Positions 1 to 49,413 of a stretch of 64,000 nt of DNA are shown piece by piece; within the stretch, counting starts at the first letter, position 1, and each line of letters begins with the position of its first letter. Under the pieces are notes generated by a model. It saw nothing but the letters and a program-made list of their open reading frames with translations. It had not been told where the DNA came from and did not search any database. The translations under genes and the position numbers were made by a program. Source of the DNA: an uncultured virus (IMG/VR IMGVR_UViG_3300021378_000017) (lineage: Duplodnaviria > Heunggongvirae > Uroviricota > Caudoviricetes); IMG/VR virus record IMGVR_UViG_3300021378_000017; one strand, 5' to 3'.

Positions 1-502
1 GAGGTCCAACTCCTCGTGCTTCAGCCCCTGTGGCTTTAGCAACATCTATTCGGGTTGACCTTACTATTTGTCTTTCCCGAACTAGATTATCAATTCCTTG
101 TCTTTCTACTACTCTAAACCAGGTTCCGCCACCTGCAGTTTTGAGAGCATCTATTAATAATTCAGTACCACCTTGGGTAACTGCAGTAGAGAATGATGCT
201 ATATTATCTACTGATTTTCTTTGGCCTGTTAAATCTTTAAATGAATATACTGCAACAACGGGCATATCCTTTGCTGGAGGTAAATTTAATAAATCTACAT
301 ATGCTGGTAACCTAACAGCCGTTGGTTCATCAACACAGATATACTTTCTTGCCATTGCTTTCTGTATACCCATTTGCAAATGTCTATTAAAACCTTGGTC
401 ATACTTTCCTTCTAAGTCATTACAATCCTGTGGATTTGGACTCCACTGTGGGACTGATGCGCATCCGCTAAGCATTAACAATAATAAAATATACTTAGCC
501 AC
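1..502 (-). CDS. csgG: Curli secretion channel CsgG-like lipoprotein (runs off window start)
   Basis: Not in ORF track. Manual translation from GTG at 502: MAKYILLLLMLSGC (lipobox)...PVVAVYSFKDLTGQRK...STAVTQGG...LIDALK...WFRVVERQGIDNLVRERQIVRSTR, the CsgG signature. Adjacent to csgF. Confidence 0.9.
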   Translation of the reverse strand, partial: MAKYILLLLMLSGCASVPQWSPNPQDCNDLEGKYDQGFNRHLQMGIQKAMARKYICVDEPTAVRLPAYVDLLNLPPAKDMPVVAVYSFKDLTGQRKSVDNIASFSTAVTQGGTELLIDALKTAGGGTWFRVVERQGIDNLVRERQIVRSTRIDVAKATGAEARGVGP

Positions 503-6399: not shown

Positions 6400-6540
6400 T
6401 TATACCTCGTAACTATTTATATGCTTATGCTTCTCTTTCCTAGGAATTTTTTTAGTTTTATCTTCCTGGATTTTAGTCAAAGCATGCACTGGAACTATCT
6501 TCCTAACTTTTATATTTCTGTTATTAAACGTCAGTTTCAT
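6400..6540 (-). CDS. 46-aa basic protein with ArfA-like RKxKHK tail
   Basis: Manual translation MKLTFNNRNIKVRKIVPVHALTKIQEDKTKKIPRKEKHKHINSYEV; fills the gap exactly. Confidence 0.55.
   Translation of the reverse strand: MKLTFNNRNIKVRKIVPVHALTKIQEDKTKKIPRKEKHKHINSYEV
6414..6421 (-). promoter_or_regulatory. Late promoter TATAAATA
   Basis: Exact motif upstream of GAGG RBS and ATG at 6397. Confidence 0.75.
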
Positions 6541-7948
6541 CGTTCTTTCTTGTCCAATCACTCATACCAAACCTTAAGCTTGGATTAATTGCTATTCTCA
6601 TAAGTGTCATTAATTCTCTATTAACTAACATTTCACTTGCTGAGTCTTCTTCAGTTAAACCAATAAATGCGTTATATGATCTACCATTAAATTTAATTGT
6701 AAGTTCTACCTTAGCTCTTTCAATTTTATTATTAGGACCTCTAACACCTACTGATTTTCCAAGGTATTTGTTAACGAATTTTTGACCATTCTTTTCCCAA
6801 TAAACTTTATTATTTTTAATCTCTACTTTATCGACATGTAACATGGAAGCATCTGTTCCATTACCTGTATCAAACTTAGCTCTAATAGGTAGTTTATAAC
6901 CTTCAATATGAACTGTCTCTATATATCCAGCTTCTTGTCTAAACCAGCTTTTTCTATTGTATGGTTCTAATATATGCTTAATCATTAAATCAATTGCTTT
7001 CTCAGCAGTTAAAGGTTTAGTAGGTTTATTAGTTTCTAAATCATAACCCATAAAGTGTGATTTAGCACCAGGCGAACCGTTTACCTCAACGACATATATT
7101 TCACCATTAACTACAGTATGATCAACTCCACAATAATATGCACCAGTTGCTCGAGCAGCATTTAGTATTACTTCTACCTCTTTTTCAGATAGTTTATATG
7201 GAATTGCTTCTGCACCCCTATGAACATTTTTTCTGAAGTCCTTAGATTTTTTAGTTTGTCTTCTTTCAGCTGATGCCATAATATGGCCATTTATTACAAG
7301 TGTTCTAATATCAGATTTCATTTCTAAATATTCTTGTAATAATAACTGTGCTTCAAACTTCCATAAAGATTGGCATACTGAGATTAATGAATCATATGAT
7401 TCGACCTTAGATACACCAATACCTTGTGTTCCTGTAAGTGTTTTTATAATTAATGGATATTTACCACCAACGCTTTTTACTGCTAAATCAATAGATTCTT
7501 CATTGTTTAAAATAACTGTTTTAGGTATCTGCACATTGTTTCTTTGTAATGCGATACTTGTTGCCATTTTATTATTACATAACAACATAGATTCTAAATC
7601 GTTTATTAAAAAGAATCCAGCTGTTTGTAAAGATGATACTAATGCTTGCCCTACTAAGGTTCCTACAGCACCAGCCCTAACAAAGATGATTGTATTATCA
7701 ATGTCTAAAGATATAAGTTTACCTTCACCATCAATATTATGTATTTCAACCTTTCTTAGTTCTACATCGCTATCCGCTAGGAATGCTTTGTTGGTGTGTA
7801 TAATTGTGCATTTAACATCGTTAAACTCACAAACATTAGAGATTATGTCAGCAGCAGTTCCTTCATCAGCATCTAGTGCCAATACAGCAACTTCTGTGAC
7901 TCCTCGTTTTTCTATCTCTTCCGTGATGTAGCCATTAAAATTAATCAT
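6524..7948 (-). CDS. rimK: RimK-family ATP-grasp ligase fused to a C-terminal retropepsin-like (RimB-type) protease
   Basis: YPLIIKTLTGTQGIGV, LLQEYL, DIR, FRKNVHRG, GVD, EVNGSPG; C-terminal AKFDTGN. Confidence 0.85.
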   Translation of the reverse strand: MINFNGYITEEIEKRGVTEVAVLALDADEGTAADIISNVCEFNDVKCTIIHTNKAFLADSDVELRKVEIHNIDGEGKLISLDIDNTIIFVRAGAVGTLVGQALVSSLQTAGFFLINDLESMLLCNNKMATSIALQRNNVQIPKTVILNNEESIDLAVKSVGGKYPLIIKTLTGTQGIGVSKVESYDSLISVCQSLWKFEAQLLLQEYLEMKSDIRTLVINGHIMASAERRQTKKSKDFRKNVHRGAEAIPYKLSEKEVEVILNAARATGAYYCGVDHTVVNGEIYVVEVNGSPGAKSHFMGYDLETNKPTKPLTAEKAIDLMIKHILEPYNRKSWFRQEAGYIETVHIEGYKLPIRAKFDTGNGTDASMLHVDKVEIKNNKVYWEKNGQKFVNKYLGKSVGVRGPNNKIERAKVELTIKFNGRSYNAFIGLTEEDSASEMLVNRELMTLMRIAINPSLRFGMSDWTRKNDETDV

Positions 7949-19256: not shown

Positions 19257-19502
19257 TTATTTTATTTTGAGTCTTCTTTCAATTTCAATTATGCGGGCAT
19301 GCATATTTGGATATTGTTTTGCAAATTTTGCATCCTTTTTTGCTAGTTCTAAATCATACTTTTCAGCAAAGTGTTCCATAAATCTGTCGACTTGCCTTTG
19401 GAACCATATACCACCTTTAGTACCTTGGAACCAGTTGTAAAATGAAGAACCTATGATAGAACTTAAAATAGATTTTAGTGATAGTATTAGTAGAAAGTAC
19501 AT
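19257..19502 (-). CDS. Hypothetical protein with hydrophobic N-terminus
   Basis: ORF track; coupled to the lipase gene. Confidence 0.5.
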   Translation of the reverse strand: MYFLLILSLKSILSSIIGSSFYNWFQGTKGGIWFQRQVDRFMEHFAEKYDLELAKKDAKFAKQYPNMHARIIEIERRLKIK

Positions 19503-20293
19503 TACTTTTCCTTACTCTTCCATTGTACAATGGAACAGTCCTTAAACGAGAGCTTTTTAATCGCTTTAACATAGTTTGGCATTCCATGGTCTACTACGCC
19601 ATCAAAGAATTTAAATCTTTTCCATGACTGTCCGATTCCATAAAAGAAATCTGTCCATGTTGGCTTAAGTGCTTTATCGCCAAATCTATTAAAGTAAATC
19701 ATCTCGCCATGATGTCTAAATCCTAACCATGCTGGTGGAATTCTACATACGATATCGTTATTATTCATAAATCTATAGTGTGGGCATTTAATATTTTTAA
19801 TAAAGTGTTTACCACCTACTCTTGGTGATCCGAAAGTAAAGAGTTCTTCAGGCTGATAACGAGTAGCACTAATTGTTGCCATGGCAGCACCTAAACTATG
19901 ACCAGTCATATAAACATCTTTTCTTACTTTTAATTGATCATTGTGTTCTAGTTCTTTTACAATGTCCATCCAAACATCATCCACTTCTTCTTGGAATCCG
20001 CCATGTACTTTACCACCAGCTTTAGCAGTATTTTTAATTATTTTTAAATCTGCCATAACATCATTTAGCTTAGAAGGTTCTGTTCCTCTAAAAGCAAACC
20101 ACATATCGTTTCTATCTTTTGCAATAAGTACTTCTGCACCGCCATTACTGATTAATTTACCTGATGAAAACCCTAGCTTTTTACATGCAGTTTCTGCTGG
20201 TTTAGGATTCATATAAGCAATTGCTGATAGCTTGGCCGCTATCTCTGCTCTTTGCCATACGGTTAATTGTTCTTTCATTCTAGTTGTCGCCAT
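19502..20293 (-). CDS. Class 3 lipase (alpha/beta hydrolase)
   Basis: AFRGTE, VHGGF, TGHSLGAAMA, TFGSPRVG, DIVCRIP, DH. Confidence 0.9.
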   Translation of the reverse strand: MATTRMKEQLTVWQRAEIAAKLSAIAYMNPKPAETACKKLGFSSGKLISNGGAEVLIAKDRNDMWFAFRGTEPSKLNDVMADLKIIKNTAKAGGKVHGGFQEEVDDVWMDIVKELEHNDQLKVRKDVYMTGHSLGAAMATISATRYQPEELFTFGSPRVGGKHFIKNIKCPHYRFMNNNDIVCRIPPAWLGFRHHGEMIYFNRFGDKALKPTWTDFFYGIGQSWKRFKFFDGVVDHGMPNYVKAIKKLSFKDCSIVQWKSKEK

Positions 20294-20780
20294 CTTTTTT
20301 CTCCAATTTAATTTCAACTGCTTCAGCTTGTTCATCATTTATCGTCACATTCCTATAGTAAACTATCACCTCGCCGAGCTGATTAATATATCTTTTAATT
20401 TCTTGAGTATTATAAGACATTAACTCATAATCATCAACAGTCATAGCAACAAATACAATATCTCCGCCATGGTTTTTCTTTATATCATCTATAAATTTAT
20501 CAAGGTAGGTATACCCTTCTGGATATAAATCCTCTCTGCCTAATTTACAGTTTGATTTTTTAGTTTCAGGATCTTTCAGACAATTTTCAATTATCTTGGT
20601 ATCTGAAACCACATACCATTTAGGTTCTTTTAAGTCTATTGCTCTAGGCATTACTGGCTGAACAATATCTATCTGAACTGGTTTTGTTATTATTTCAACT
20701 TCTCTTGGAGCCTGTTGAAGTAATGAACAACCACTAATCGTTAAGAGTGCTAATACGCTTGCTATCTGCTTCAATCGCAT
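20280..20780 (-). CDS. Lipoprotein, probable o-spanin
   Basis: MRLKQIASVLALLTISGC lipobox; overlaps 3' end of i-spanin-like gene. Confidence 0.65.
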   Translation of the reverse strand: MRLKQIASVLALLTISGCSLLQQAPREVEIITKPVQIDIVQPVMPRAIDLKEPKWYVVSDTKIIENCLKDPETKKSNCKLGREDLYPEGYTYLDKFIDDIKKNHGGDIVFVAMTVDDYELMSYNTQEIKRYINQLGEVIVYYRNVTINDEQAEAVEIKLEKKDGDN

Positions 20781-33656: not shown

Positions 33657-34319
33657 TTATACTATTTCGTTATAAGGGAATACTTTTGATATAACTTCAC
33701 CACAAATCTTAGCAATCTCTATATGTTCCTTTTGAGTGCCGTGTGCTGACCTCAATTGGATATAGTGAATCCATGATCTAAGAGTACCATTAACGTACAT
33801 TCTGCTCATAGTTAATCCTTCAGGTAATACTGCTCTGGCCTGCTCTTTAGCAATACCAGCTTCAATAGCCCAGTCATATGCTTGTCTGCACCTTTCGATT
33901 ATTACTTCTTGGTACGATTCCCAAACATAATTAATAGAATCTTCTTGGTTTAATTCAATAGAATTCTGTCTATTTTTAGTATCCTGCATCCTAGCTTCTC
34001 TTGTGGTAAATTCTAAATCTTTAGTGGGATCAGCATACCTTTGAGAAAATTCTTGGAATGAAAAAGATCTGTGTCTTAAAATTTGTCGTGCTATATCTCG
34101 TGTAGTATTAATTTCCATACAAACTGATACCATTTCTAATGGAGACCAATGTTGATTTTTAATTAAATACTTAACGAGTTTTTCTGATGTTTCATGACTT
34201 GTTTGGTTTCCAGGATTGGACACTCGAGCACAGTATGAAACTAATTGAAGAAGATCCTCGCCCGTTGTCGGGGCGAGGTCCTCTGAGGGTTGCGAATATG
34301 ATATAAGACTCACGTTCAT
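33657..34319 (-). CDS. thyX: FAD-dependent thymidylate synthase
   Basis: HWSPLE, RQILRHRSFSFQEFSQRY, EQARAVLP, TQKEH. Confidence 0.95.
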   Translation of the reverse strand: MNVSLISYSQPSEDLAPTTGEDLLQLVSYCARVSNPGNQTSHETSEKLVKYLIKNQHWSPLEMVSVCMEINTTRDIARQILRHRSFSFQEFSQRYADPTKDLEFTTREARMQDTKNRQNSIELNQEDSINYVWESYQEVIIERCRQAYDWAIEAGIAKEQARAVLPEGLTMSRMYVNGTLRSWIHYIQLRSAHGTQKEHIEIAKICGEVISKVFPYNEIV

Positions 34320-37258: not shown

Positions 37259-37518
37259 TATTTTCCTCCTCGACCACGTTCAGGTCTTAATTGCATTGAG
37301 CGTTCTTTTTTGCGCCATCTGGCTAAAGCTTCTGCTTTTTTCCTTTTCTTTTTAGCAGTTGGTTTTTCGTAAAACTCTTTACGTCTTACATCTTGAAGAG
37401 TTCCAGCTCTTTCAACTGCCTTTCTAAATTTTCTAAGAGCAACATCGAATGGCATTTCGGTTGCTGGTCTTTTATCTTTTGGGTGCCTCTTACGAGGTCT
37501 TAAATCTACACTTGGCAT
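37258..37518 (-). CDS. rpsU: Ribosomal protein bS21 homologue
   Basis: [37 protein letters not shown]. Confidence 0.9.
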
Positions 37519-37543
37519 AGTTCTCCTTGTTAATAATATAGTT

Positions 37544-37572
37544 ATTATACCATACTTTCGGTTGAATGTACA
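37544..37572 (-). promoter_or_regulatory. Early promoter (rpsU-uvsX-41)
   Basis: TGTACA-N17-TATAAT. Confidence 0.75.
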
Positions 37573-38399
37573 TGGTTAAATTGAATGTTTTGTTCTTTTT
37601 CTCTTTCGTCTCTTTCATATTGAGATCTATAATCATTGTTTATCTCAATTGCTTTGGCCAAAAGAGAAAGTTCATTACTGAATTTTGCAAAAGCCAAAGT
37701 ATCTTTAGGAAAACATGCACCGCCGTATCCTTGTTTTCCATCAAATCCTGGAACCTTAGTATGTGAAGGTGCAATTCTATTATCAGCACCAACTGCTTTA
37801 ATAATAGTATTGAAATTGACATCGCCGTTAGTTCTACACAGATCGTAGAGCTGATTAAAGAATGTAATCTTAGTTGCTAGGAATGAATTGATTGTGTATT
37901 TAACCAAAGAAGCTTCTTCATGGTTCATATGATAAGATGGGCATGGTGTACATAAACTATATTTTTCGTAGAATTCTTCTAACCTTTTAGTATTATATAT
38001 GTCTCCACCAAAGATATGAAACTCAGGATTCACAAATTGTTCACATGCAGACTTTTCTGTTAAAAATTCTGGATTATAGACAACATTATTCCAAAATTTA
38101 TATTCAGCTATTACATTTGGTGTAACAGTTGATTTAATAACAATTAGTGTTTCCTTTAAGCATTCATCGAGATTATCCATTACAGATTTTAAAATACTGC
38201 TATTGATATTACCATCGTCGCCCATAGGTGTAGGAACACACACAAAAATTAAATCGGGTTTCCAATCTTTTAATTTGTATTGATCATTATCAGTATGACC
38301 ATAGTTCGGATCTAAGATTTTCTTTTCTACTTGCTGATTACTAAATCCGTAATCAACTGCTTTACCTACAAAACCATGTCCTATAATTGCTAATCTCAT
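37545..38399 (-). CDS. UDP-glucose/GDP-mannose 6-dehydrogenase family (short form)
   Basis: [43 protein letters not shown]. Confidence 0.9.
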
Positions 38400-39193
38400 T
38401 ATATATTACCATCCCAGTTTAAGTCTAATTGTTTCATTGTTTGCGTTTTATAATCATCTTCTAATACATGGTGGTTTGCAACCCAGCCAAATTTAGTTAA
38501 AATTGTTGGATCAGCACATGTATCTTGTCGTTCACCAGTAACTTCTTTTAGTGGTAAATTATTCTCTGGCCAAACTTTATCAGCCATTTCCTTTACTGTA
38601 ACAGGTTTACCATTACCAACATCAATTGCTTTATTATGAACTATCATATCAAAGTATGTTATGCAAATATCTATTGCACTGCATACGTCATCAACATGAG
38701 TCCAATCTCTAGTATGATTAGTTAGGTATGTTAACTTTGGATCTTTTCTTAAAAGCGCATCGTATAGCATATCTTCTCTGCTATCAGGACCATACACAGT
38801 ATGGAATCTTAATCCAATAGAATTTTTAGGTGCTATAGCTTCCATAGCATATTTTGTAGAAGCATAAGGTGATAACCACCATTCATAAACACTTGATGAT
38901 GAAGCATATATGATTGGAACATTAGCTTTTTCGCATGCTTCAAAAATATACTTAGATGCTTCTACATTAGTTTTCCAATATTCTTGTGGAATTTCATGTG
39001 ATCTTCGAACTCCAGCTAAAGCTGCAAGGTGTATCACGAAATCAAAATCGCTTACGATAATACCTTCTGCATTTCTAATGTCTGCAGTGTACTCTACAAT
39101 CTCATATTGATTACCATATTTCTTTGCAAACCTGCTTCCAATAAAACCTTTCCTTGGTCCACTTTTGCTTCCTGTCAATAATATTCTTATCAT
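38399..39193 (-). CDS. NAD-dependent sugar epimerase (UDP-glucuronate 4-epimerase-like)
   Basis: HLAALAGVRRS, YASSSSVY, YASTK, GLRFHTVYGP, RDWTHVDD. Confidence 0.85.
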   Translation of the reverse strand: MIRILLTGSKSGPRKGFIGSRFAKKYGNQYEIVEYTADIRNAEGIIVSDFDFVIHLAALAGVRRSHEIPQEYWKTNVEASKYIFEACEKANVPIIYASSSSVYEWWLSPYASTKYAMEAIAPKNSIGLRFHTVYGPDSREDMLYDALLRKDPKLTYLTNHTRDWTHVDDVCSAIDICITYFDMIVHNKAIDVGNGKPVTVKEMADKVWPENNLPLKEVTGERQDTCADPTILTKFGWVANHHVLEDDYKTQTMKQLDLNWDGNI

Positions 39194-40398
39194 AAAAATG
39201 CCTCTAAACTATTTTCTTCTCTTTTATAATCATAACTTCTATTTAAATTATTTTGGAATAAGTAACTTGTTTCAACACTATCCCTTTTACCTTCTAATAC
39301 TGCTTTAACCTCTATTGCCATATCCCTTGCTGTAGCAAATGGAACGTTTTGGCAGATATGATTATAATTCTTTTCTACATCTAGTACTTCCATATCTAAG
39401 GGTAATCCCATAATAGCTTTACCTTCAGCAACATTTAAGTATCTGTCTTCTACTGGATGTGCAATAACTTTAGGTAAATGTACAACGAATGCTCCAATAT
39501 AATTAATTGGAATAATTGTACCTCTAAGCATGATTCCACCGCCTGATGCAATCTTACCTGCTTTACGTCTAGCCTTTGCAGCTTCTCTTTCAAACTGAGG
39601 ATATTGATCCATCCATTCAGCAAGTTTAAGATGATCATGCCCAAGTTTCATTAACCTAGATTCTACATTAATAGACTTTTCTTCATGTGAATGTCTTTCA
39701 ACAAATTCAGCATGAGTACATTTAGATTCAACCTCAAGTGTGTACTTATAATATGGATCATCTTGCGAAGGTGTTTTTGTATTTAAAACTTGTGTTTGAA
39801 AGTTTGTATCGACACCTTTAATTAGATCTTGAATCATAGGTCTTTCTTTATTATAATAGTTAAACAATGGAATCCTATCGTTAAATTCATCTTTTTTCCA
39901 AAAGAAAAAGAATGTCCTTTTACGATACTGTGGATTTCCATGTTGTAAACTTTTAGTTAAATAAATCGAAAAGTTATATCCATTATCTTGGCCAATCTTA
40001 TAGAGTTTTTCTCTCATAAATTTACCAATCTTTCCAGATAATCCTGGTGCGTTCTCTCCCCATAATACCTTTGGTTTAACTTCTTTTAAAACGTATTCAG
40101 ATGATTTTTCCATCCATTGATTGTTTTCGTTCTGTTCACCATGTGAGTTATGGTAAGTACTTAATCCAGCACATGGACAAACTGAAGAGACAATGTCCAC
40201 ATTTTCCATCTTTTCGGACGTTTCATCTAAAACATGATATGGAATGTCCTTTCCCTGTTCCTTATAATAATTTAAAAGGTGTGTTTCATTAGCCATAAAT
40301 CCAGAATATGTCATTAAATATTCTGGGTCTGTTCCATAAGCATCTGCTGATGCCAAAATTTCACCACCAATTAGTGGTACTATACCTGCGTGTTTCAT
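39190..40398 (-). CDS. Atypical DNA cytosine-C5 methyltransferase-fold protein
   Basis: CPCAG (IV), ENAPG (VI), QYRKRTFF (VIII), RYLNVAE..AIMGLP (IX), CQNVP (X); motif I reads VPLIGG. Confidence 0.75.
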   Translation of the reverse strand: MKHAGIVPLIGGEILASADAYGTDPEYLMTYSGFMANETHLLNYYKEQGKDIPYHVLDETSEKMENVDIVSSVCPCAGLSTYHNSHGEQNENNQWMEKSSEYVLKEVKPKVLWGENAPGLSGKIGKFMREKLYKIGQDNGYNFSIYLTKSLQHGNPQYRKRTFFFFWKKDEFNDRIPLFNYYNKERPMIQDLIKGVDTNFQTQVLNTKTPSQDDPYYKYTLEVESKCTHAEFVERHSHEEKSINVESRLMKLGHDHLKLAEWMDQYPQFEREAAKARRKAGKIASGGGIMLRGTIIPINYIGAFVVHLPKVIAHPVEDRYLNVAEGKAIMGLPLDMEVLDVEKNYNHICQNVPFATARDMAIEVKAVLEGKRDSVETSYLFQNNLNRSYDYKREENSLEAFL

Positions 40399-41228
40399 CC
40401 GAAAAATGTCTCCAAACTTGATTCTTGTTGTTTTTTAATTGCATCTTTATAAGCTTTTGACCAGCTAATATGACAAGTAATTCTGTCTTGTCCTTTCCAT
40501 GGTCCGTTAGCCAATACCTTGCTTTTTAGAGCAACATAATCTGGATAAATTTCAGCTAGTTGCTGATGCACTTTATTACTTAATTCAATTGTTCTATAAT
40601 TTGAACAACCACCTGCTGTGTTAGTCGCTGTTACGCTAACACGATACCTTGTGGTAATCCTATTTGCAAACCCTTGAGTAAGCAATTGAAGATTAGCATC
40701 AAAATCTTGAGAAGTTTCTAACCTATCCCATATAAGATTCCTTGGTAAATTTTTAGAATCAAAATAACAATTAGTCATAATCCTTACATTGTTCTGGTGT
40801 GGCCAATACTTTAGATCTGGTACAACCCACGATGTTGAGAATCCACCATGATAAATCTTTTCTTCTTTTATCCATTTATCGAATGTGGCAAAAGCGTCGT
40901 CAAACTCTTCTTCTGTCATATCCTTGGTTTCCCATTTGGTGTCCATACCTTCAGGTGCTGGGCCTTTGTATTTAAAGTATTCAAAGTCATCGTCTAAAAC
41001 CATGTGCCTTGTTCCATAAAACTCATCCCAAATCCATTGCCGTGTTGGCGATAGCCTAGAAATTTCTTTAGGTAGTTTTACTACAGCATCACCGTATCGC
41101 TCTCTCATAGGAGCGTACTCATGATCTTGAACTATAAACTTTACTAGTTTTTGATACTTTTCTGGTAAGTTATCATAAGTTCTTTGTTTGTCCATCCTAC
41201 CTAATGTAGGTATAATTAAGTGTTCCAT
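40395..41228 (-). CDS. GT-A fold DNA glycosyltransferase (T-even beta-glucosyl-hmC glucosyltransferase / TET-associated GT-like)
   Basis: IIPTLGR, TRQWI, VLDDD, QDFD..LQLL..G, GGCS.YR. Confidence 0.75.
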   Translation of the reverse strand: MEHLIIPTLGRMDKQRTYDNLPEKYQKLVKFIVQDHEYAPMRERYGDAVVKLPKEISRLSPTRQWIWDEFYGTRHMVLDDDFEYFKYKGPAPEGMDTKWETKDMTEEEFDDAFATFDKWIKEEKIYHGGFSTSWVVPDLKYWPHQNNVRIMTNCYFDSKNLPRNLIWDRLETSQDFDANLQLLTQGFANRITTRYRVSVTATNTAGGCSNYRTIELSNKVHQQLAEIYPDYVALKSKVLANGPWKGQDRITCHISWSKAYKDAIKKQQESSLETFFG

Positions 41229-41528
41229 TTATCCTCCGTTCACTAAATGCATTACTAAATTTTTAATTAGTAAAAATAATCCAGCACCATTTAATAAAAT
41301 AAGTGCTCTATCTTTCCATAAGACCGATACTATTAACCATAGAAATATTCCTACGATACTAAGTCCTAAGTCCCATACTTGAAATCCTTCAACGCCTCGT
41401 AAAGACATTGCAGCTAAAACTACGATTGAGGCTATCCATTTTATATACCAATCTAAAGTATACTTTGGTGTTGCCGATTTAAAAATTCTTTTTGAATTAG
41501 CTAATTCTTCTTCGCTATAATCAACCAT
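41229..41528 (-). CDS. Small multi-TM membrane protein
   Basis: DWYIKWIAS...G..LWLIVSVLWKDRALILLN. Confidence 0.6.
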   Translation of the reverse strand: MVDYSEEELANSKRIFKSATPKYTLDWYIKWIASIVVLAAMSLRGVEGFQVWDLGLSIVGIFLWLIVSVLWKDRALILLNGAGLFLLIKNLVMHLVNGG

Positions 41529-41775
41529 CTTTCGAAATTTCTCCTGTGTATTGAAATTCACCCTTGTCATATCGTAGTTTATATTCTTTTACAATCTCGC
41601 CAAGCATGTTCTGTTTATTTTGAACTATAATTTCTGGTGCATTTAATATATGTAATTTACTTAAATCTTTTTGAAAGCTTTCAATATGATTTTCTAAATC
41701 TTCCTTAGAGTAATCTTTAAACTTAGGGTTTCTTCTATTTTTCTTATACAGTAACTGTTCATTAAATGAAGTCAT
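41521..41775 (-). CDS. Hypothetical protein
   Basis: ORF track; overlaps neighbours. Confidence 0.5.
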   Translation of the reverse strand: MTSFNEQLLYKKNRRNPKFKDYSKEDLENHIESFQKDLSKLHILNAPEIIVQNKQNMLGEIVKEYKLRYDKGEFQYTGEISKDG

Positions 41776-42205
41776 ATGTTATACCAACCTCCTTTAATAA
41801 ATCGACTGTGTTAATTGCTGATATCTTCCATTTGTCTGGTACATCTGCAATTGTCTTAGGTGATACTACCCTCTTAACTCCAACTTGAGCTAATCCCTTT
41901 GCACATTCATTACAAACTGGTAAACCCCAAACATACATTGTAGCATTGTTTAGAGATGCTCCAGTAAATGTAGCATTATAGATACAATTCATTTCCGCAT
42001 GAACTACATAGCGGTATTTAACTTCTTTATCGTTATACCTTTCAAGTGAATCATTAACACCTCTAGGAAAACCATTATAGCCTTGTGCTAATACCTGTCC
42101 CATCTCTCCAATTGCTACTGCACCTACTTGGGTACTTGGATCTTTTGACCAAGTTGAAACTTCCCTTGCTAGGTTTAAGTATCTGTTGTCCCATTTATTG
42201 TTCAT
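41762..42205 (-). CDS. cd: dCMP deaminase
   Basis: SKDPSTQVGA, GYNGFPRG, HAEMN, PVCNECAK. Confidence 0.93.
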   Translation of the reverse strand: MNNKWDNRYLNLAREVSTWSKDPSTQVGAVAIGEMGQVLAQGYNGFPRGVNDSLERYNDKEVKYRYVVHAEMNCIYNATFTGASLNNATMYVWGLPVCNECAKGLAQVGVKRVVSPKTIADVPDKWKISAINTVDLLKEVGITYDFI

Positions 42206-42867
42206 TTGTTTACCAATTTAAAATGTCTTTCGTACACATGTAAGTTTTGTACTTGCCAAACAATTTCACCTGGAAATACTTTTAGCATATATGCCATATC
42301 GTCAAGTACTGCTTTTTGCCATGCGTAATCGTTACGATAACCAAAGATAACATCATTAGATCGCATTTGTACAACACAATCGAGTTTACCTTCACGTATA
42401 TAATATGTAACAGAGTTTGTACAGATAAAATCGTTTTTACCATTTTCATTATATTCACACCATATACTTGGTCTTGTATAAATCATTGATGCTCTACGTG
42501 AATCTGGATTTTGTAACAATTCAGATAGTGCCATATCAAATTGTGCACCGTATTTGTCTGAATAAATTAAATGACCATAATTTGAATTGATTTCACCGTG
42601 TTCATTAGCAGTCATTTTCCATGCTCCAGGTGGTTCTCTATCGCTATCTAAATAGATATCATTAATGTTTGTAGATTGGCTGTTATACCAATTTAGTTCT
42701 GCATCAATGTAAGCTTTGTTTGGAACACCAAATATAGCTGGTTCATCAGCATAAAACGAAGCACCAATTAGTTCAATTGTTTTACTACCATTTCTGTCTA
42801 CAGTAAATCTTTCATTACGAAGTTCGTTACGAAAGTAAGTTCTTAGTTGGTCGATTTCAAGATTCAT
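42202..42867 (-). CDS. 42: dCMP hydroxymethylase (T4 gp42 orthologue)
   Basis: KTIELIGASF.ADEP.IFG, GEINSNYG, NPDSRR, DFICTN, MRSNDVIFGYRNDYAWQ with the cytosine-specifying Asp, LHVYERHF. Confidence 0.92.
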   Translation of the reverse strand: MNLEIDQLRTYFRNELRNERFTVDRNGSKTIELIGASFYADEPAIFGVPNKAYIDAELNWYNSQSTNINDIYLDSDREPPGAWKMTANEHGEINSNYGHLIYSDKYGAQFDMALSELLQNPDSRRASMIYTRPSIWCEYNENGKNDFICTNSVTYYIREGKLDCVVQMRSNDVIFGYRNDYAWQKAVLDDMAYMLKVFPGEIVWQVQNLHVYERHFKLVNK

Positions 42868-43195
42868 TTTTGTTCCTATTTAAAAAGTCATTGTCTCCTG
42901 ATTGGCCATCGATACCACCTCGCATATATGCAACCATAAATGAAGCATAGTTAATTAAATCTTTACCAGAGTCTTCTAGTGATTCAAAGTTTGGGAGGTA
43001 GTCGGGATCTGATTCCATAGCTTCTAGAACTGAGAACATTCTGAGAGTTTTAGCATGGATAATATCTAGGATTGAAGCTACACCACGAGGGTAGTAATCT
43101 GCTTGTTTAATCCTAGAGTTTGGATTTTGATAGTCATTACTTTTCTTTGCCTGAAGTTCGGCACATTCTTGTAATACTTTTAGTGATTCTTTCAT
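42857..43195 (-). CDS. Nucleotide-modification-associated domain protein (Nmad1/DUF1599-like)
   Basis: KKSNDY...K..R...ESLEDS..DLINYA; first gene of the modification operon. Confidence 0.65.
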   Translation of the reverse strand: MKESLKVLQECAELQAKKSNDYQNPNSRIKQADYYPRGVASILDIIHAKTLRMFSVLEAMESDPDYLPNFESLEDSGKDLINYASFMVAYMRGGIDGQSGDNDFLNRNKNES

Positions 43196-43221
43196 AATAT
43201 AACCTTTCTGTTTATAGTACT

Positions 43222-44520: not shown

Positions 44521-45438
44521 CTATATGTTGTTTTTAAAAATAAATTCAATAGCCCTTTCAGCTTCTTTATGAATTGGTCTTTTTGCGTACCAATTTCCAG
44601 TGTCTGCATCGAGATCTCTAATGATATACTCAATTTCTTTAGATGTTATTGGATAACCCTTAGACATTGCATTACCTGCTATTGAAACCATTATCTGATA
44701 TAGTTTGTAATACCAACCAGCACCTGATAAAGTTTTGTATTCTTCAATTTGTTTTTTGTTTATAAAAGGGCAGTCTTGATATCCTGTCCATGAAAAGTTA
44801 GTGTTATCGAGTTTTGCTTGTCGATGTTGTATAAGACCCCTTTTAATAGCTTCAGGTAACTTATCGAAAAACGATTCATTTGGTACGACGTATCTGTGTT
44901 GTTCCATAAGCTTTGCTGGGTCCATGGTAGATCCATCGTGTGAGAATATGAAATTGTAAGATCCTTTATATTTAGCTGGGACGTAGTACATTCTGCTGAG
45001 GTCTTTTGTTTGGGCATCTGCGATATCTCCTATCTCTTTATTTAATGCGTACCAAAAATGTTTGATTTCATCTTTATTTATAGCTCTTGTTAGTGGAAAT
45101 ACTAAACGAAACTTAGGGTGTTCTTTAGTCGAGCTAGCAGTGGAATAACATACGTATTTGTATCCGCTATATACTTCAGAAATATCATCGATACTTCCAG
45201 TATAATCGTCTACATCTACAATTCCAAAACCACCCCAACTAAGAACATTATCGTTTGCACGAGTTGTCTCCGGTATATAAGTTGCTGGAGATATTAGTGG
45301 TGCTGATTTTTTAGTTGGATATTTAGTACTTTCCGATAACTGATATAACACTTTTTCAAAATCATCAAAGGATTTATATGTAATGCTTTTATCAGTTTTA
45401 TTATCGTATATACTGTTAAATATCGTTAAACTTACCAT
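44521..45438 (-). CDS. Archaeo-eukaryotic primase (AEP/PrimPol)-like protein
   Basis: R.NDNV...IVDVDD, YSTASS, PKFRLVFPL, D.QTKDLSRMYYVP; helical C-terminal domain. Confidence 0.7.
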   Translation of the reverse strand: MVSLTIFNSIYDNKTDKSITYKSFDDFEKVLYQLSESTKYPTKKSAPLISPATYIPETTRANDNVLSWGGFGIVDVDDYTGSIDDISEVYSGYKYVCYSTASSTKEHPKFRLVFPLTRAINKDEIKHFWYALNKEIGDIADAQTKDLSRMYYVPAKYKGSYNFIFSHDGSTMDPAKLMEQHRYVVPNESFFDKLPEAIKRGLIQHRQAKLDNTNFSWTGYQDCPFINKKQIEEYKTLSGAGWYYKLYQIMVSIAGNAMSKGYPITSKEIEYIIRDLDADTGNWYAKRPIHKEAERAIEFIFKNNI

Positions 45439-45817
45439 GATTGCCTGCGTGTGATGGAGCGGTCCAACCTTCAGGTTTAATTAGGTCTGGAACTCCTAGT
45501 GGATTTGGCCTACTTGGCTTTTGTCCTACTTCTTTATTCATATTAGCTTCTAGTACAGCATCCCAAGCTTTATAGGGATCGACACCAAACGCATCAAGTG
45601 TACCAATAGCAACAACACATAGATCTATTAAACCATCTACAATTTCTTCTGGGTCATTATTAGTAACCGCAGCTGTTGTTTCCATTAGTTCTTCTTTCAA
45701 AAAATCAACTCTAAACTCAAGAAACTTTTTTAGTTTCTCAGGATTGGTTTCAACCCATTGTCTAGTAAGATATTTGCTTTGCATTAAGTGAATATCTTCT
45801 ACCCAATTCTTAGACAT
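45416..45817 (-). CDS. MazG-like all-alpha NTP pyrophosphohydrolase (candidate dCTPase/dUTPase)
   Basis: LKEELME...EEIVDGLIDL...V.EANMNK...DLIKPEGW. Confidence 0.75.
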   Translation of the reverse strand: MSKNWVEDIHLMQSKYLTRQWVETNPEKLKKFLEFRVDFLKEELMETTAAVTNNDPEEIVDGLIDLCVVAIGTLDAFGVDPYKAWDAVLEANMNKEVGQKPSRPNPLGVPDLIKPEGWTAPSHAGNHGKFNDI

Positions 45818-48957: not shown

Positions 48958-49413
48958 CTATTCTCGAATAAATTCCTTCTTCTTTGATGCCCCAGCAGAC
49001 CCGATTTCGATCTTCCTAGGACGCCTCTCTTCTGGAACCTCAACTCTGGCGTTAACCACAAGTATTCCGTTCACTAGATCAGCCCCGTCTATTACGACAA
49101 ATTCTGAGAGTCGGAAGGACTTCTCAAATTTGCGGGATGATATACCTTTATGTGCATATTCACGTTCATCATCTTCATTATGTTGACCTTTTATTAAAAG
49201 AATACCATCCTTTACTTCCAATGAAATATCATCTTCAGAAAATCCAGCAACTGCAAGTTCGATATTGAAATTATCATCATCGATTTTCACAACGTTGTGT
49301 GGGGGATAATTATCTTGAGATCTTCCAGCTTGGTGGATTCTTTCAAGTTCATTTAATATTGGATCAAATCCAATAAAGAGGGAACGCGGCACGTTCATTG
49401 CATTTCTTACCAT
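48958..49413 (-). CDS. hsp20: Small heat-shock protein Hsp20 (IbpA-like)
   Basis: NYPPHNV, IELAVAGF, HKGISSRKF..SF.L, A.LVNGIL. Confidence 0.95.
   Translation of the reverse strand: MVRNAMNVPRSLFIGFDPILNELERIHQAGRSQDNYPPHNVVKIDDDNFNIELAVAGFSEDDISLEVKDGILLIKGQHNEDDEREYAHKGISSRKFEKSFRLSEFVVIDGADLVNGILVVNARVEVPEERRPRKIEIGSAGASKKKEFIRE

Follow-up and report, generated by a model that had tools for sequence, protein, structure and literature searches.

A C5-cytosine-methyltransferase-fold protein with altered cofactor motifs in phage cytosine-modification islands

The DNA analysed here (the window) is a stretch of 64,000 nucleotides from an uncultured virus of the Caudoviricetes (IMG/VR record IMGVR_UViG_3300021378_000017). 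The gene in question lies at positions 39190..40398 on the minus strand and encodes a protein with the C5-cytosine-methyltransferase (C5-MTase) fold, hereafter the MT-like protein, in which the motifs for the cofactor S-adenosylmethionine (SAM) are altered and which probably does something other than ordinary methylation. The window comes from a T4-like marine phage with a G+C content of about 34%; nearly all its genes lie on the minus strand, and they include gp23, gp43, gp44/62, gp45, gp41, UvsX/Y/W, RegA, NrdAB, PhoH, and ThyX. A megablast search of window positions 37500-43200 against isolate phages returned no matches. The genes of the locus and the motifs of the protein are as follows.

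45416..45817, minus strand: MazG/PRA-PH-type nucleoside triphosphate pyrophosphohydrolase, candidate dCTPase (PF01503, E 1.1e-11; weak match to MazG-like DR2231)
42857..43195, minus strand: small hydrolase-like protein upstream of gp42 (phrog_18404 "hydrolase", E 1.1e-11)
42202..42867, minus strand: T4-type dCMP hydroxymethylase, gp42 homologue (E 3.4e-69 to PDB 1B49/1B5E)
41762..42205, minus strand: dCMP deaminase (PF00383, E 1.3e-18; phrog_174)
40395..41228, minus strand: TET-associated-type DNA glycosyltransferase, TAGT (PF20691, E 6.8e-18; phrog_842, E 1.6e-36)
39190..40398, minus strand: MT-like protein, 402 amino acids (aa), of the phage-only "PLIGG/QNVP" clade (open reading frame (ORF), PF00145, AlphaFold 2 (AF2) model, homologues)
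40363..40380, minus strand: motif I variant VPLIGG, residues 7-12 (translation)
40279..40308, minus strand: motif II region, apparently rebuilt, with Tyr31, Phe34, Asn37, Glu38, and His40 (alignment offset and predicted strand)
40225..40227, minus strand: Asp58, candidate for the motif III acid that contacts adenine N6 in canonical enzymes (conservation, predicted strand 54-56)
40159..40179, minus strand: motif IV CPCAGLS, Pro75-Cys76, with catalytic Cys76 (translation)
40042..40056, minus strand: motif VI ENAPG, residues 115-119, with Glu115 (translation)
39916..39930, minus strand: motif VIII QYRKR, residues 157-161, with Gln157, Arg159, and Arg161 (translation)
39388..39459, minus strand: motif IX HPVEDRYLNVAEGKAIMGLPLDME, residues 314-337 (translation; aligned to motif IX of 8yf3 and HaeIII)
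39340..39354, minus strand: motif X variant CQNVP, residues 349-353 (translation; alignments to M.HaeIII and 8yf3)
38399..39193, minus strand: NAD-dependent sugar epimerase/dehydratase (PF01370, E 3.4e-22; phrog_540)
37545..38399, minus strand: UDP-glucose/GDP-mannose dehydrogenase family protein, last gene of the operon (PF00984, E 1.3e-18; PF03721, E 5.5e-15)

A sequence-only reading of this DNA had described a Dcm-fold enzyme with intact PC, ENxxG, QxRxR, and motif IX and with VPLIGG and CQNVP in place of the usual motifs I and X, set between a glycosyltransferase and a sugar epimerase in a genome expected to be C5-substituted. The translation agrees with both sets of motifs, the two neighbours are the TAGT and the epimerase listed above, and the C5-substitution gene is a T4-type dCMP hydroxymethylase with the D143/D169/D177 signature.

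In the MT-like protein, PF00145 matches residues 56-357 (E 1.6e-17), and the profile gives no alignment to the N-terminal 55 residues, which hold motifs I-II. Single-sequence similarity to solved methylases is marginal (E 0.002-0.008), with CmoX (PDB 8yf3) best at E 0.0023 and M.HhaI at 0.0048. A 20-sequence profile raises these matches to E 8e-7 for 8yf3 and 1e-6 for M.HhaI, though still aligning just motifs IV-VIII and IX-X. A profile comparison with E. coli Dcm reached a probability of only 0.4% and aligned motifs IV-VIII alone, so no N-terminal equivalences were taken from it. An AF2 model built on the 20-sequence alignment (pLDDT 84.9, pTM 0.83) matches M.HhaI in Foldseek at E 2.3e-12. 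In VIA, the model aligns to M.HaeIII with Z 23.2 (rmsd 3.1, 275 residues aligned), to M.HhaI with Z 23.0 (rmsd 3.3, 299 residues aligned, model 1..371 on chain 12..325), and to CmoX 8yf3 with Z 21.6 (model 1..371 on 19..372). The predicted structure is that of a two-domain C5-MTase of the M.HaeIII and M.HhaI type, in line with the fold assigned by the sequence-only reading. Among the PF00145 hallmarks, the motif IV Cys, the motif VI Glu, and the Q-x-R-x-R of motif VIII are present, whereas those of the cofactor side, namely FxGxGG in motif I, the motif II acid, and GNxVP in motif X, are not. All the residues needed for cytosine flipping and attack at C6 are kept (Cys76, Glu115, Arg159, and Arg161). 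No other methyltransferase-fold match was obtained among the window ORFs scanned.

The replaced residues were located on the cofactor pocket through structural offsets. With model residue 1 equivalent to HhaI 12 and CmoX 19, Val7 falls on HhaI Phe18 and CmoX Phe25, Leu9 falls on HhaI Gly20, and Gly11-Gly12 fall on Gly22-Gly23. The C-terminal offset (371 = HhaI 325) places Gln350 on HhaI Asn304 and CmoX Arg350, and HMMER backs this placement by pairing I-G-N-A-V-P of HaeIII with i-c-q-n-v-p and by giving V-G-R-M-V-P for 8yf3. Motif X itself is not lost; the change that counts is Asn to Gln (G-N-x-V-P versus C-Q-N-V-P). Judging from the HMMER offset (A36 = A45) and the predicted strand 27-30, Tyr31 would fall on HhaI Glu40 at the end of β2, and the invariant Asp/Glu seven residues after it (position 38) might replace the motif II acid. 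With less certainty, Asp58 may be the equivalent of HhaI Asp60 in motif III; HMMER instead paired Asp60 with the non-conserved Asp51, and the conserved Asp58 stands two residues past predicted strand 54-56. In the canonical pocket as numbered for CmoX, Phe25 and Phe48 stack on the adenine, which Asp69 also binds, and Glu47 holds the ribose hydroxyls; in CmoX, the residue corresponding to HhaI Asn304 is in contact with the group being transferred (PMC12783734). A His/Cys metal site in the pocket was considered and ruled out, as H3, C74, H347, and C349 are absent from the clade members of phages S-TIM54 or XG4.

These replacements are shared throughout the clade and go far beyond chance. Homologues of the MT-like protein number 2260 at E <= 0.001. 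An exhaustive search of representatives returned 726 clusters at E <= 0.001, with 209 at E <= 1e-30, and almost all of the matches begin at residue 1. PLxGG is found in 252/267 fetched homologues. Residue counts were made over 243 full-length homologues of 340-460 aa that are 28-79% identical to the window protein (median 47%). On the catalytic side, Cys76 is kept in 242, and Glu115, Arg159, and Arg161 are each kept in all 243. On the cofactor side, position 7 is Ile or Val in 228 and Phe in none, position 9 is Leu in 238 and Gly in 1, position 31 has an aromatic residue in 235 and an acid in 1, position 32 has an acid in 70, position 38 is Asp or Glu in 240, and position 58 is Asp or Glu in 228. 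Position 350 is Gln in 240, Lys in 2, Glu in 1, and never Arg, and position 351 is Asn in 237. Phe34, Asn37, Asp/Glu38, and His40 form a newly invariant set. The substitutions in motifs I and X noted by the sequence-only reading are therefore common to the homologues, nearly without exception.

Regional conservation was measured among 111 distant members (<40% identity). The motif I-III region has a median identity of 40% and the catalytic core 48%, and since the N-terminal region is about as conserved as the core, the cofactor side is under purifying selection in its altered form rather than decaying. The altered cofactor motifs are thus a clade signature and not decay. The recognition region between motifs VIII and IX has a median identity of 17% in the same members and evolves as it does in sequence-specific methylases. 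An earlier notion that a conserved recognition domain implied a fixed target was dropped after the distant members were added.

In Atlas clusters the clade is virus-only and labelled just "DNA (cytosine-5-)-methyltransferase family protein", and a literature search did not find it described. PF00145 matches exactly one protein, the clade member itself, in each of five large related records. The MetaGPA supplement lists DNA_methylase in 6 selected versus 846 unselected contigs (p 0.40), which is uninformative for the clade. One member, P0213 (598 aa), is fused to a zf-CXXC domain (E 6.6e-7); the CXXC finger binds unmodified CpG. P0213, P0168 (653 aa), and P0202 (1462 aa) come from metagenome contigs of 2-5 kb, and some members have long K/E-rich C-terminal tails. 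Among the long-tailed members, which look eukaryote-like or giant-virus-like, one has the zf-CXXC domain and another has C2H2-like finger motifs.

Relative to the canonical enzymes M.HhaI and M.HaeIII, the clade has the same fold, the same motifs IV, VI, VIII, and IX, and the same catalytic Cys, Glu, and two Arg, but it differs in having I/V-P-L-x-G-G in motif I, an aromatic residue for the motif II Glu, and Gln for the motif X Asn. The natural precedent for such a departure is CmoX of Synechococcus phage S-B43 (PDB 8YF3), which is likewise a phage C5-MTase homologue whose repurposing involved replacement of the residue equivalent to HhaI Asn304 (PMC12783734). CmoX as described there keeps Phe25, Glu47, Phe48, and Asp69, has Arg350 and SPPC, and needs a phage CmoA, whereas the window protein has Val7, Tyr31, Ser32, Gln350, and CPC in motif IV. 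A search for CmoA (TIGR00740) gave no match in 5 related records, 4 of which are at least 90% complete, and the E. coli control was recovered. Lacking Arg350 and SPPC, and with CmoA not found in those records, the window protein is not a CmoX. It could nevertheless act in a CmoX-like way by placing a non-methyl group, drawn from a SAM-derived or other host metabolite, on C5 of unsubstituted cytosine. CmoX is the closest solved relative by sequence, the group-selecting position (Asn304 to Arg350 in CmoX; PMC12783734) is here a nearly invariant Gln, with Lys in 2/243, and the invariant polar residues that now occupy the adenosine site suggest that a ligand is bound there. Such a role is decidedly unlikely, as there is no conserved cofactor-synthesis neighbour, a carboxylate would pair poorly with Gln, the clade has altered the adenosine contacts retained in CmoX, and an unmodified-cytosine substrate is lacking, as it is for plain methylation.

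The clade is found only in phages with a cytosine-specific thymidylate-synthase (TS) homologue. Gene neighbourhoods were retrieved as a close IMG/VR set (80 loci, close alignment), a distant IMG/VR set (80 loci, distant alignment), and a GTDB-genome set (15 loci, all on contigs of metagenome-assembled genomes (MAGs)). A TS homologue lies within the fetched locus in 61/80 of the close set, and in 41/41 of those with at least 6.5 kb of upstream flank; in 37/80 of the distant set, and in 25/31 with at least 10 kb of upstream flank; and in 11/15 of the MAG contigs, and in 8/8 with at least 10 kb of flank. In the close set, the synthase is always upstream of the MT-like gene on the same strand, and in the distant set it is upstream in 31 loci and downstream in 6. 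Six distant-set loci without a nearby synthase (L156-158 and L160-162) belong to one clade, from records 7-45% complete by CheckV, and two records of this clade carry a hydroxymethylase-type TS 56 kb away from the MT-like gene. Searching whole records of the distant set, L162 being outside the search, recovered a TS homologue in 32/42, including 3/3 of those at least 90% complete, and 13/13 records at least 45% complete hold both the MT-like gene and a TS homologue. The check named by the sequence-only reading, whether PLIGG-type homologues always accompany gp42, thus turns out in favour of that reading.

The 15 MAG contigs, the only places in GTDB genomes where the clade was found, are assigned to unrelated taxa (Rhodobacteraceae, Planctomycetes, Pacearchaeota, and others), and 7/8 of the MAG loci with full 10-kb flanks show the viral gene order gp42, dCMP deaminase, MT-like gene. 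They are probably phage contigs binned into MAGs.

The dependence runs one way. A gp42 homologue is present in 944 isolate phage records (E <= 1e-20), and the clade in just 6. Among gp42-anchored relatives with at least 6 kb of downstream flank, 16/22 have the MT-like gene, and PF00145 gave no matches in 5 gp42 records without an MT-like gene that were searched, one of them a 141,675-bp record with terminal repeats.

The partner synthases appear to be of two chemical kinds. Across 109 loci, 103 have the signature D143/D169/D177, two have D169/D177 with residue 143 undetermined, and four are truncated or without the motif; outside the S-TIM5 clade, the hydroxymethylase signature is found in 103/105 evaluable partners. 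Matches to the MT-like protein occur in 9/50,697 isolate phage records, none of them T4 or another enterobacterial T-even phage, and full-length members occur in six: five S-TIM5-like cyanophages and Pseudoalteromonas phage XG4. The XG4 member has PLIGG and AQNVP, with a gp42-like gene (PND) 4.6 kb upstream and sugar genes between. The S-TIM54 member has PLVGG and CQNVP and lies 2 kb from a gene for a 280-aa ThyA-like protein with Asp at 177 and Cys at 143 (L001:5114-5956; motifs HCPPCH ... GVPLD), to which loci L218-L230 are related. A partner of ThyA length with N177D and without an acidic residue 143 is found in 10/10 S-TIM5-clade IMG/VR loci with enough flank, and in 10/14 overall. From these residues, the S-TIM5-clade synthase is probably a dCMP methylase making 5-methyl-dCMP, which would give a genome substituted with 5-methylcytosine (5mC).

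Because the carriers hold a cytosine-specific TS homologue, their own cytosines would be C5-substituted before replication. This bears on a rival reading of the protein, that of an ordinary SAM-dependent C5-methyltransferase with an idiosyncratic pocket, which would make 5mC at defined motifs while mopping up stray cytosines or acting on a partly substituted genome. Most PF00145 proteins are real methylases, and the MT-like protein is a PF00145 member with the full catalytic set. It keeps Gly11-Gly12, Asp58, and the acid at 38, which together with Tyr31 and Phe34 could rebuild an adenosine site, and its recognition region diverges as in sequence-specific methylases. In the S-TIM5 clade, such an enzyme would yield the same base as the presumed dCMP methylase, and the CXXC fusion in one member has a parallel in DNMT1, which carries CXXC. 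Even so, ordinary methylation is on the unlikely side. The equivalents of Phe18, Gly20, Glu40, and Asn304 are all replaced, nearly invariantly; replacing the first two in M.SssI greatly cuts methyl transfer (PMC3804486), and CmoX, which uses a SAM derivative, keeps all the canonical adenosine contacts that the clade does not (PMC12783734). Nor is there an obvious substrate in a fully substituted 5-hydroxymethylcytosine (hmC) genome, and the constant association with a TS homologue would go unexplained.

The gene order in the window is TAGT, MT-like gene, epimerase, and UDP-glucose dehydrogenase, with ATGA overlaps joining the TAGT stop to the MT-like start and the MT-like stop to the epimerase start, and with base 38399 shared by the epimerase and dehydrogenase ORFs. 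Given these overlapping starts and stops and the shared base, the four genes form one tight operon, in which the MT-like gene is translationally coupled to DNA-glycosylation genes. The dehydrogenase-family protein (37545-38399) is only 284 aa long and matches the N-terminal and central Pfam domains without the C-terminal UDP-binding domain. The gp42 homologue, 1.8 kb upstream of the MT-like gene, has an acidic residue 143 (DFIC), Asp169 (RSND), and Asp177 (RND), residues that in published diagnostics point to a cytosine-specific hydroxymethylase rather than a 5-hydroxy-dCMP synthase (PMC13326640; PMC8670742). The small hydrolase-like protein beside it travels with gp42, with a tblastn match in 46/81 loci searched, and has no PDB sequence matches. 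The window holds two MazG/PRA-PH-like dCTPase candidates by Pfam and PHROG matches, and the MazG/PRA-PH-type protein may act as a dCTPase, an enzyme whose removal of dCTP makes the substitution complete. In the published survey, PF01503 and TS homologues co-occur on cytosine-modified contigs, as does a module including dCMP deaminase, the small hydrolase-like protein, and a PRA-PH/MazG pyrophosphatase (PMC8670742). The window also encodes ThyX (33657-34319; PF02511, E 5e-41) beside the gp42-type hydroxymethylase (42202-42867) and dCMP deaminase, so the supplies of thymidylate and of 5-hydroxymethyl-dCMP would run on two unrelated enzymes.

The T4 hmC system consists of gp42, a dCTPase, alpha- and beta-glucosyltransferases, and the C-DNA-specific EndoII, EndoIV, and Alc. 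The window likewise encodes a gp42 homologue that bears the T4 signature, along with dCMP deaminase, MazG-type pyrophosphatase, and DNA glycosyltransferase genes; it differs in that the glycosyltransferase is of the TAGT type with uronic-acid-type sugar genes, and T4 has no clade member.

Across loci, the neighbours of the MT-like gene vary. In the close set, they include unknown families of ~369 aa (23 loci) and ~368 aa (23 loci), the T4 alpha-glucosyltransferase (AGT) family (17), a 5-hmdU-DNA-kinase-like protein (16), an inositol-phosphate-synthase-like protein (13), TAGT (11), and UDP-galactopyranose mutase (10). The clade's pocket residues are constant whatever glycosylation cassette adjoins. 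The MT-like gene lies at the end of sugar cassettes in XG4 and in the L156 clade as well, and in the S-TIM5-clade locus no Pfam-detectable sugar gene was found among four neighbouring ORFs scanned. The MT-like protein is an accessory part of phage cytosine-modification islands.

Several loci show further variety in these islands. Proteins homologous to the helical domain of 5-hmdU DNA kinase (PF18723), present in 16 gp42-type loci (for example L016:4254-5345, E 2e-8, and L216:14219-15307, E 1.5e-9), hint at a kinase-activated route from hmC like the known hmU route. In the L156 clade (37-38% identical), the MT-like gene stands within a large sugar-nucleotide and glycosyltransferase cluster (L156:318-16000) with DAHP-synthase/NeuB-like, PseB-like dehydratase, PglD-like acetyltransferase, DegT aminotransferase, GT2, FkbM methyltransferase, nucleotidyltransferase, epimerase, and GT1 genes. 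A 334-aa gene after the MT-like gene in this clade was considered as a hidden TET or TS and rejected; it has no PDB matches and a consensus of DDD and H-x-x-G-x-x-K-P, motifs from which we take it to be a GT8-like glycosyltransferase. A 130-aa neighbour resembling uracil-DNA glycosylase (weak PF03167, E 0.00059) has no PHROG match and was dropped. In a close relative (L209:11059-14145), the slot that corresponds to window 37545-41228, between DUF6552 and UvsX, lacks the TAGT/MT-like/epimerase/dehydrogenase operon and holds instead a 423-aa unknown protein, a 291-aa protein resembling enzymes dependent on pyridoxal phosphate, and a 317-aa unknown protein, which looks like a swap of the hypermodification module.

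The sequence-only reading had drawn on this setting to propose a repurposed base-flipping enzyme that edits or derivatises hmC. C5-methylases act on hmC in vitro without SAM, and in this scheme the enzyme would flip hmC, attach Cys76 to C6, and expel the hydroxyl to give an exocyclic methylene, which would then couple a nucleophile or release formaldehyde; the outcome would be a further hypermodified cytosine, or hmC edited at chosen sites. The operon coupling to TAGT, epimerase, and dehydrogenase fits this chemistry, as do the constant position of the MT-like gene at the edge of a variable hypermodification cassette, including the end of the sugar cassettes in XG4 and the L156 clade, the hydroxymethylase signature in 103/105 evaluable partner synthases, and the polar Gln350-Asn351 where the C5 substituent would point. 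The difficulty comes from the S-TIM5 clade, whose members have the same pocket beside a ThyA-like N177D synthase without an acidic 143, and whose probable 5-methyl-dCMP offers no hydroxyl to exchange. In addition, the pocket is constant across cassettes, glycosyltransferases would compete for the same hydroxyl, there is no conserved candidate nucleophile or partner, and the CXXC fusion points to unmodified DNA. Derivatisation of hmC is therefore unlikely. Of the earlier proposal, the idea of a repurposed enzyme gains from the intact catalytic half, the rebuilt cofactor half, and the dependence on a cytosine TS, whereas its hmC aspect is weakened by the S-TIM5 clade.

The adjacent TAGT also invites comparison with known phage clusters of C5-methyltransferase, TET, and glycosyltransferase genes, in which a methylase-fold gene likewise adjoins a TAGT-type glycosyltransferase and sugar-nucleotide genes (PMC8256090; bioRxiv 10.1101/2023.12.21.572611). 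Those clusters differ from the window, where a dCMP hydroxymethylase supplies the hydroxymethyl group before replication. A scan of 71 window proteins gave no Tet_JBP (PF12851) match, nor did searches of 5 large related records and of 45 related records, and the 4 records with first-look candidates still gave none at E <= 10; the absence from the 45 records is weak evidence because no positive control was recovered in that search. The MT-like protein might be the methylase of such a cluster with an undetected oxygenase, or might not be a DNA-modifying catalyst at all, serving as a base-flipping or DNA-binding accessory, for instance to the small TAGT, or as a Dnmt2-like RNA or nucleotide enzyme. 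Dnmt2-like enzymes act on tRNA, and the family of the TAGT neighbour is named for its TET association. These roles are very unlikely, as the nearly invariant catalytic Cys and the invariant Glu and Arg argue for catalysis, no Tet_JBP was found within the limits just given, and gp42 already supplies hmC.

The reading favoured here is a SAM-independent attack on unsubstituted, non-phage cytosine, with deamination of C to U as the lead reaction, to which we assign a probability of roughly 0.3. A broader statement, in which methyl transfer has been given up and the Cys-C6 adduct serves either for deamination or trapping of unmodified non-phage DNA or for exchange at the hydroxymethyl of hmC, comes close to an even chance without reaching it. 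Under the favoured reading, Leu9 and Gln350 would plug the methionine and sulfonium part of the pocket, and the adenosine part would be re-made by Tyr31, Phe34, Asp/Glu38, and Asp58. With the methionine part plugged and the adenosine part re-made, the Cys76-C6 adduct would be left, without a methyl donor, to react with water. On unmodified DNA, this would deaminate C to U or leave the adduct stalled; the phage genome, with its C5-substituted cytosines, would be immune.

Laboratory mutants provide a precedent for this chemistry. M.SssI F17S and G19D alter the same two motif I positions (the Phe and the first Gly) and have greatly reduced methyl transfer; at physiological SAM, the G19D enzyme converts cytosine into uracil in E. 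coli (PMC3804486). An adenosine analogue without the methionine part speeds deamination, and deamination of 5mC went undetected in the experiments described in that source (PMC3804486). The pocket proposed for the clade, plugged on its methionine side and re-made on its adenosine side, would correspond to this arrangement. The comparison has its limits, since these are laboratory mutants with a slow side activity, whereas the changes in the clade, known from sequence, are natural, nearly invariant, and joined by further pocket changes.

The favoured attack on unsubstituted cytosine is also consistent with the near invariance of both the catalytic residues and the cofactor-side replacements in the 243 homologues, and with a dependence that runs one way, on genomes whose C5 substitution is of two chemical kinds. 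Because the partner synthases are of two chemical kinds, the common substrate would most simply be unsubstituted cytosine, in host DNA or at stray unmodified sites, and the enzyme would seem to be useful only where the phage's own cytosines are blocked at C5. The zf-CXXC fusion in one member fits an unmodified-DNA target, and there is no conserved cofactor-synthesis partner (CmoA in 0/5 records). The same logic is seen in T4, whose nucleases and Alc act specifically on C-containing DNA.

Several observations weigh against this reading. Gly11-Gly12, Asp58, and the invariant Asp/Glu38 may yet suffice to bind SAM in a shifted pose, and an acid is present at position 32 in 70/243 members. ATGA overlaps tie the gene into a glycosylation operon, and the whole cassette is swapped in L209, so the enzyme has more the appearance of a biosynthetic step than of a weapon. 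The recognition region, at 17% median identity, diverges like that of sequence-specific methylases, and deamination by methylases is reported as a slow side reaction (PMC3804486). The hydroxymethylase type of 103/105 evaluable partner synthases outside the S-TIM5 clade could point to chemistry specific for the hydroxymethyl group, and the product of the S-TIM5 synthase is one that we infer.

Beside these subjects, the window contains a RimK-like ATP-grasp ligase (6524-7948; PF08443, E 1.2e-32), 31 kb from the locus and with no link to it found; in CmoX phages, ATP-dependent amide ligases extend 5-carboxymethylcytosine (PMC12783734). Cargo unusual for a T4-like phage comprises a CsgF-like protein (495-977; PF10614, E 1.6e-14), a class 3 lipase (19502-20338; E 6.5e-21), and Hsp20 (48958-49413; E 1.1e-17).

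C5-methyltransferases are among the best understood DNA enzymes, and a natural member that transfers a group other than methyl, CmoX, has been shown only recently. The cultured carriers, namely the S-TIM5-like cyanophages and Pseudoalteromonas phage XG4, allow the function of the clade to be tested, and an enzyme that discriminates C from 5-substituted C would be useful for modified-base sequencing. If the MT-like protein is still a methylase, it would represent a new way of holding SAM and a second, post-replicative layer over hmC or 5mC genomes. Otherwise, it would provide a new way of making hypermodified cytosine or be the first phage enzyme to turn methylase chemistry on unmodified DNA.

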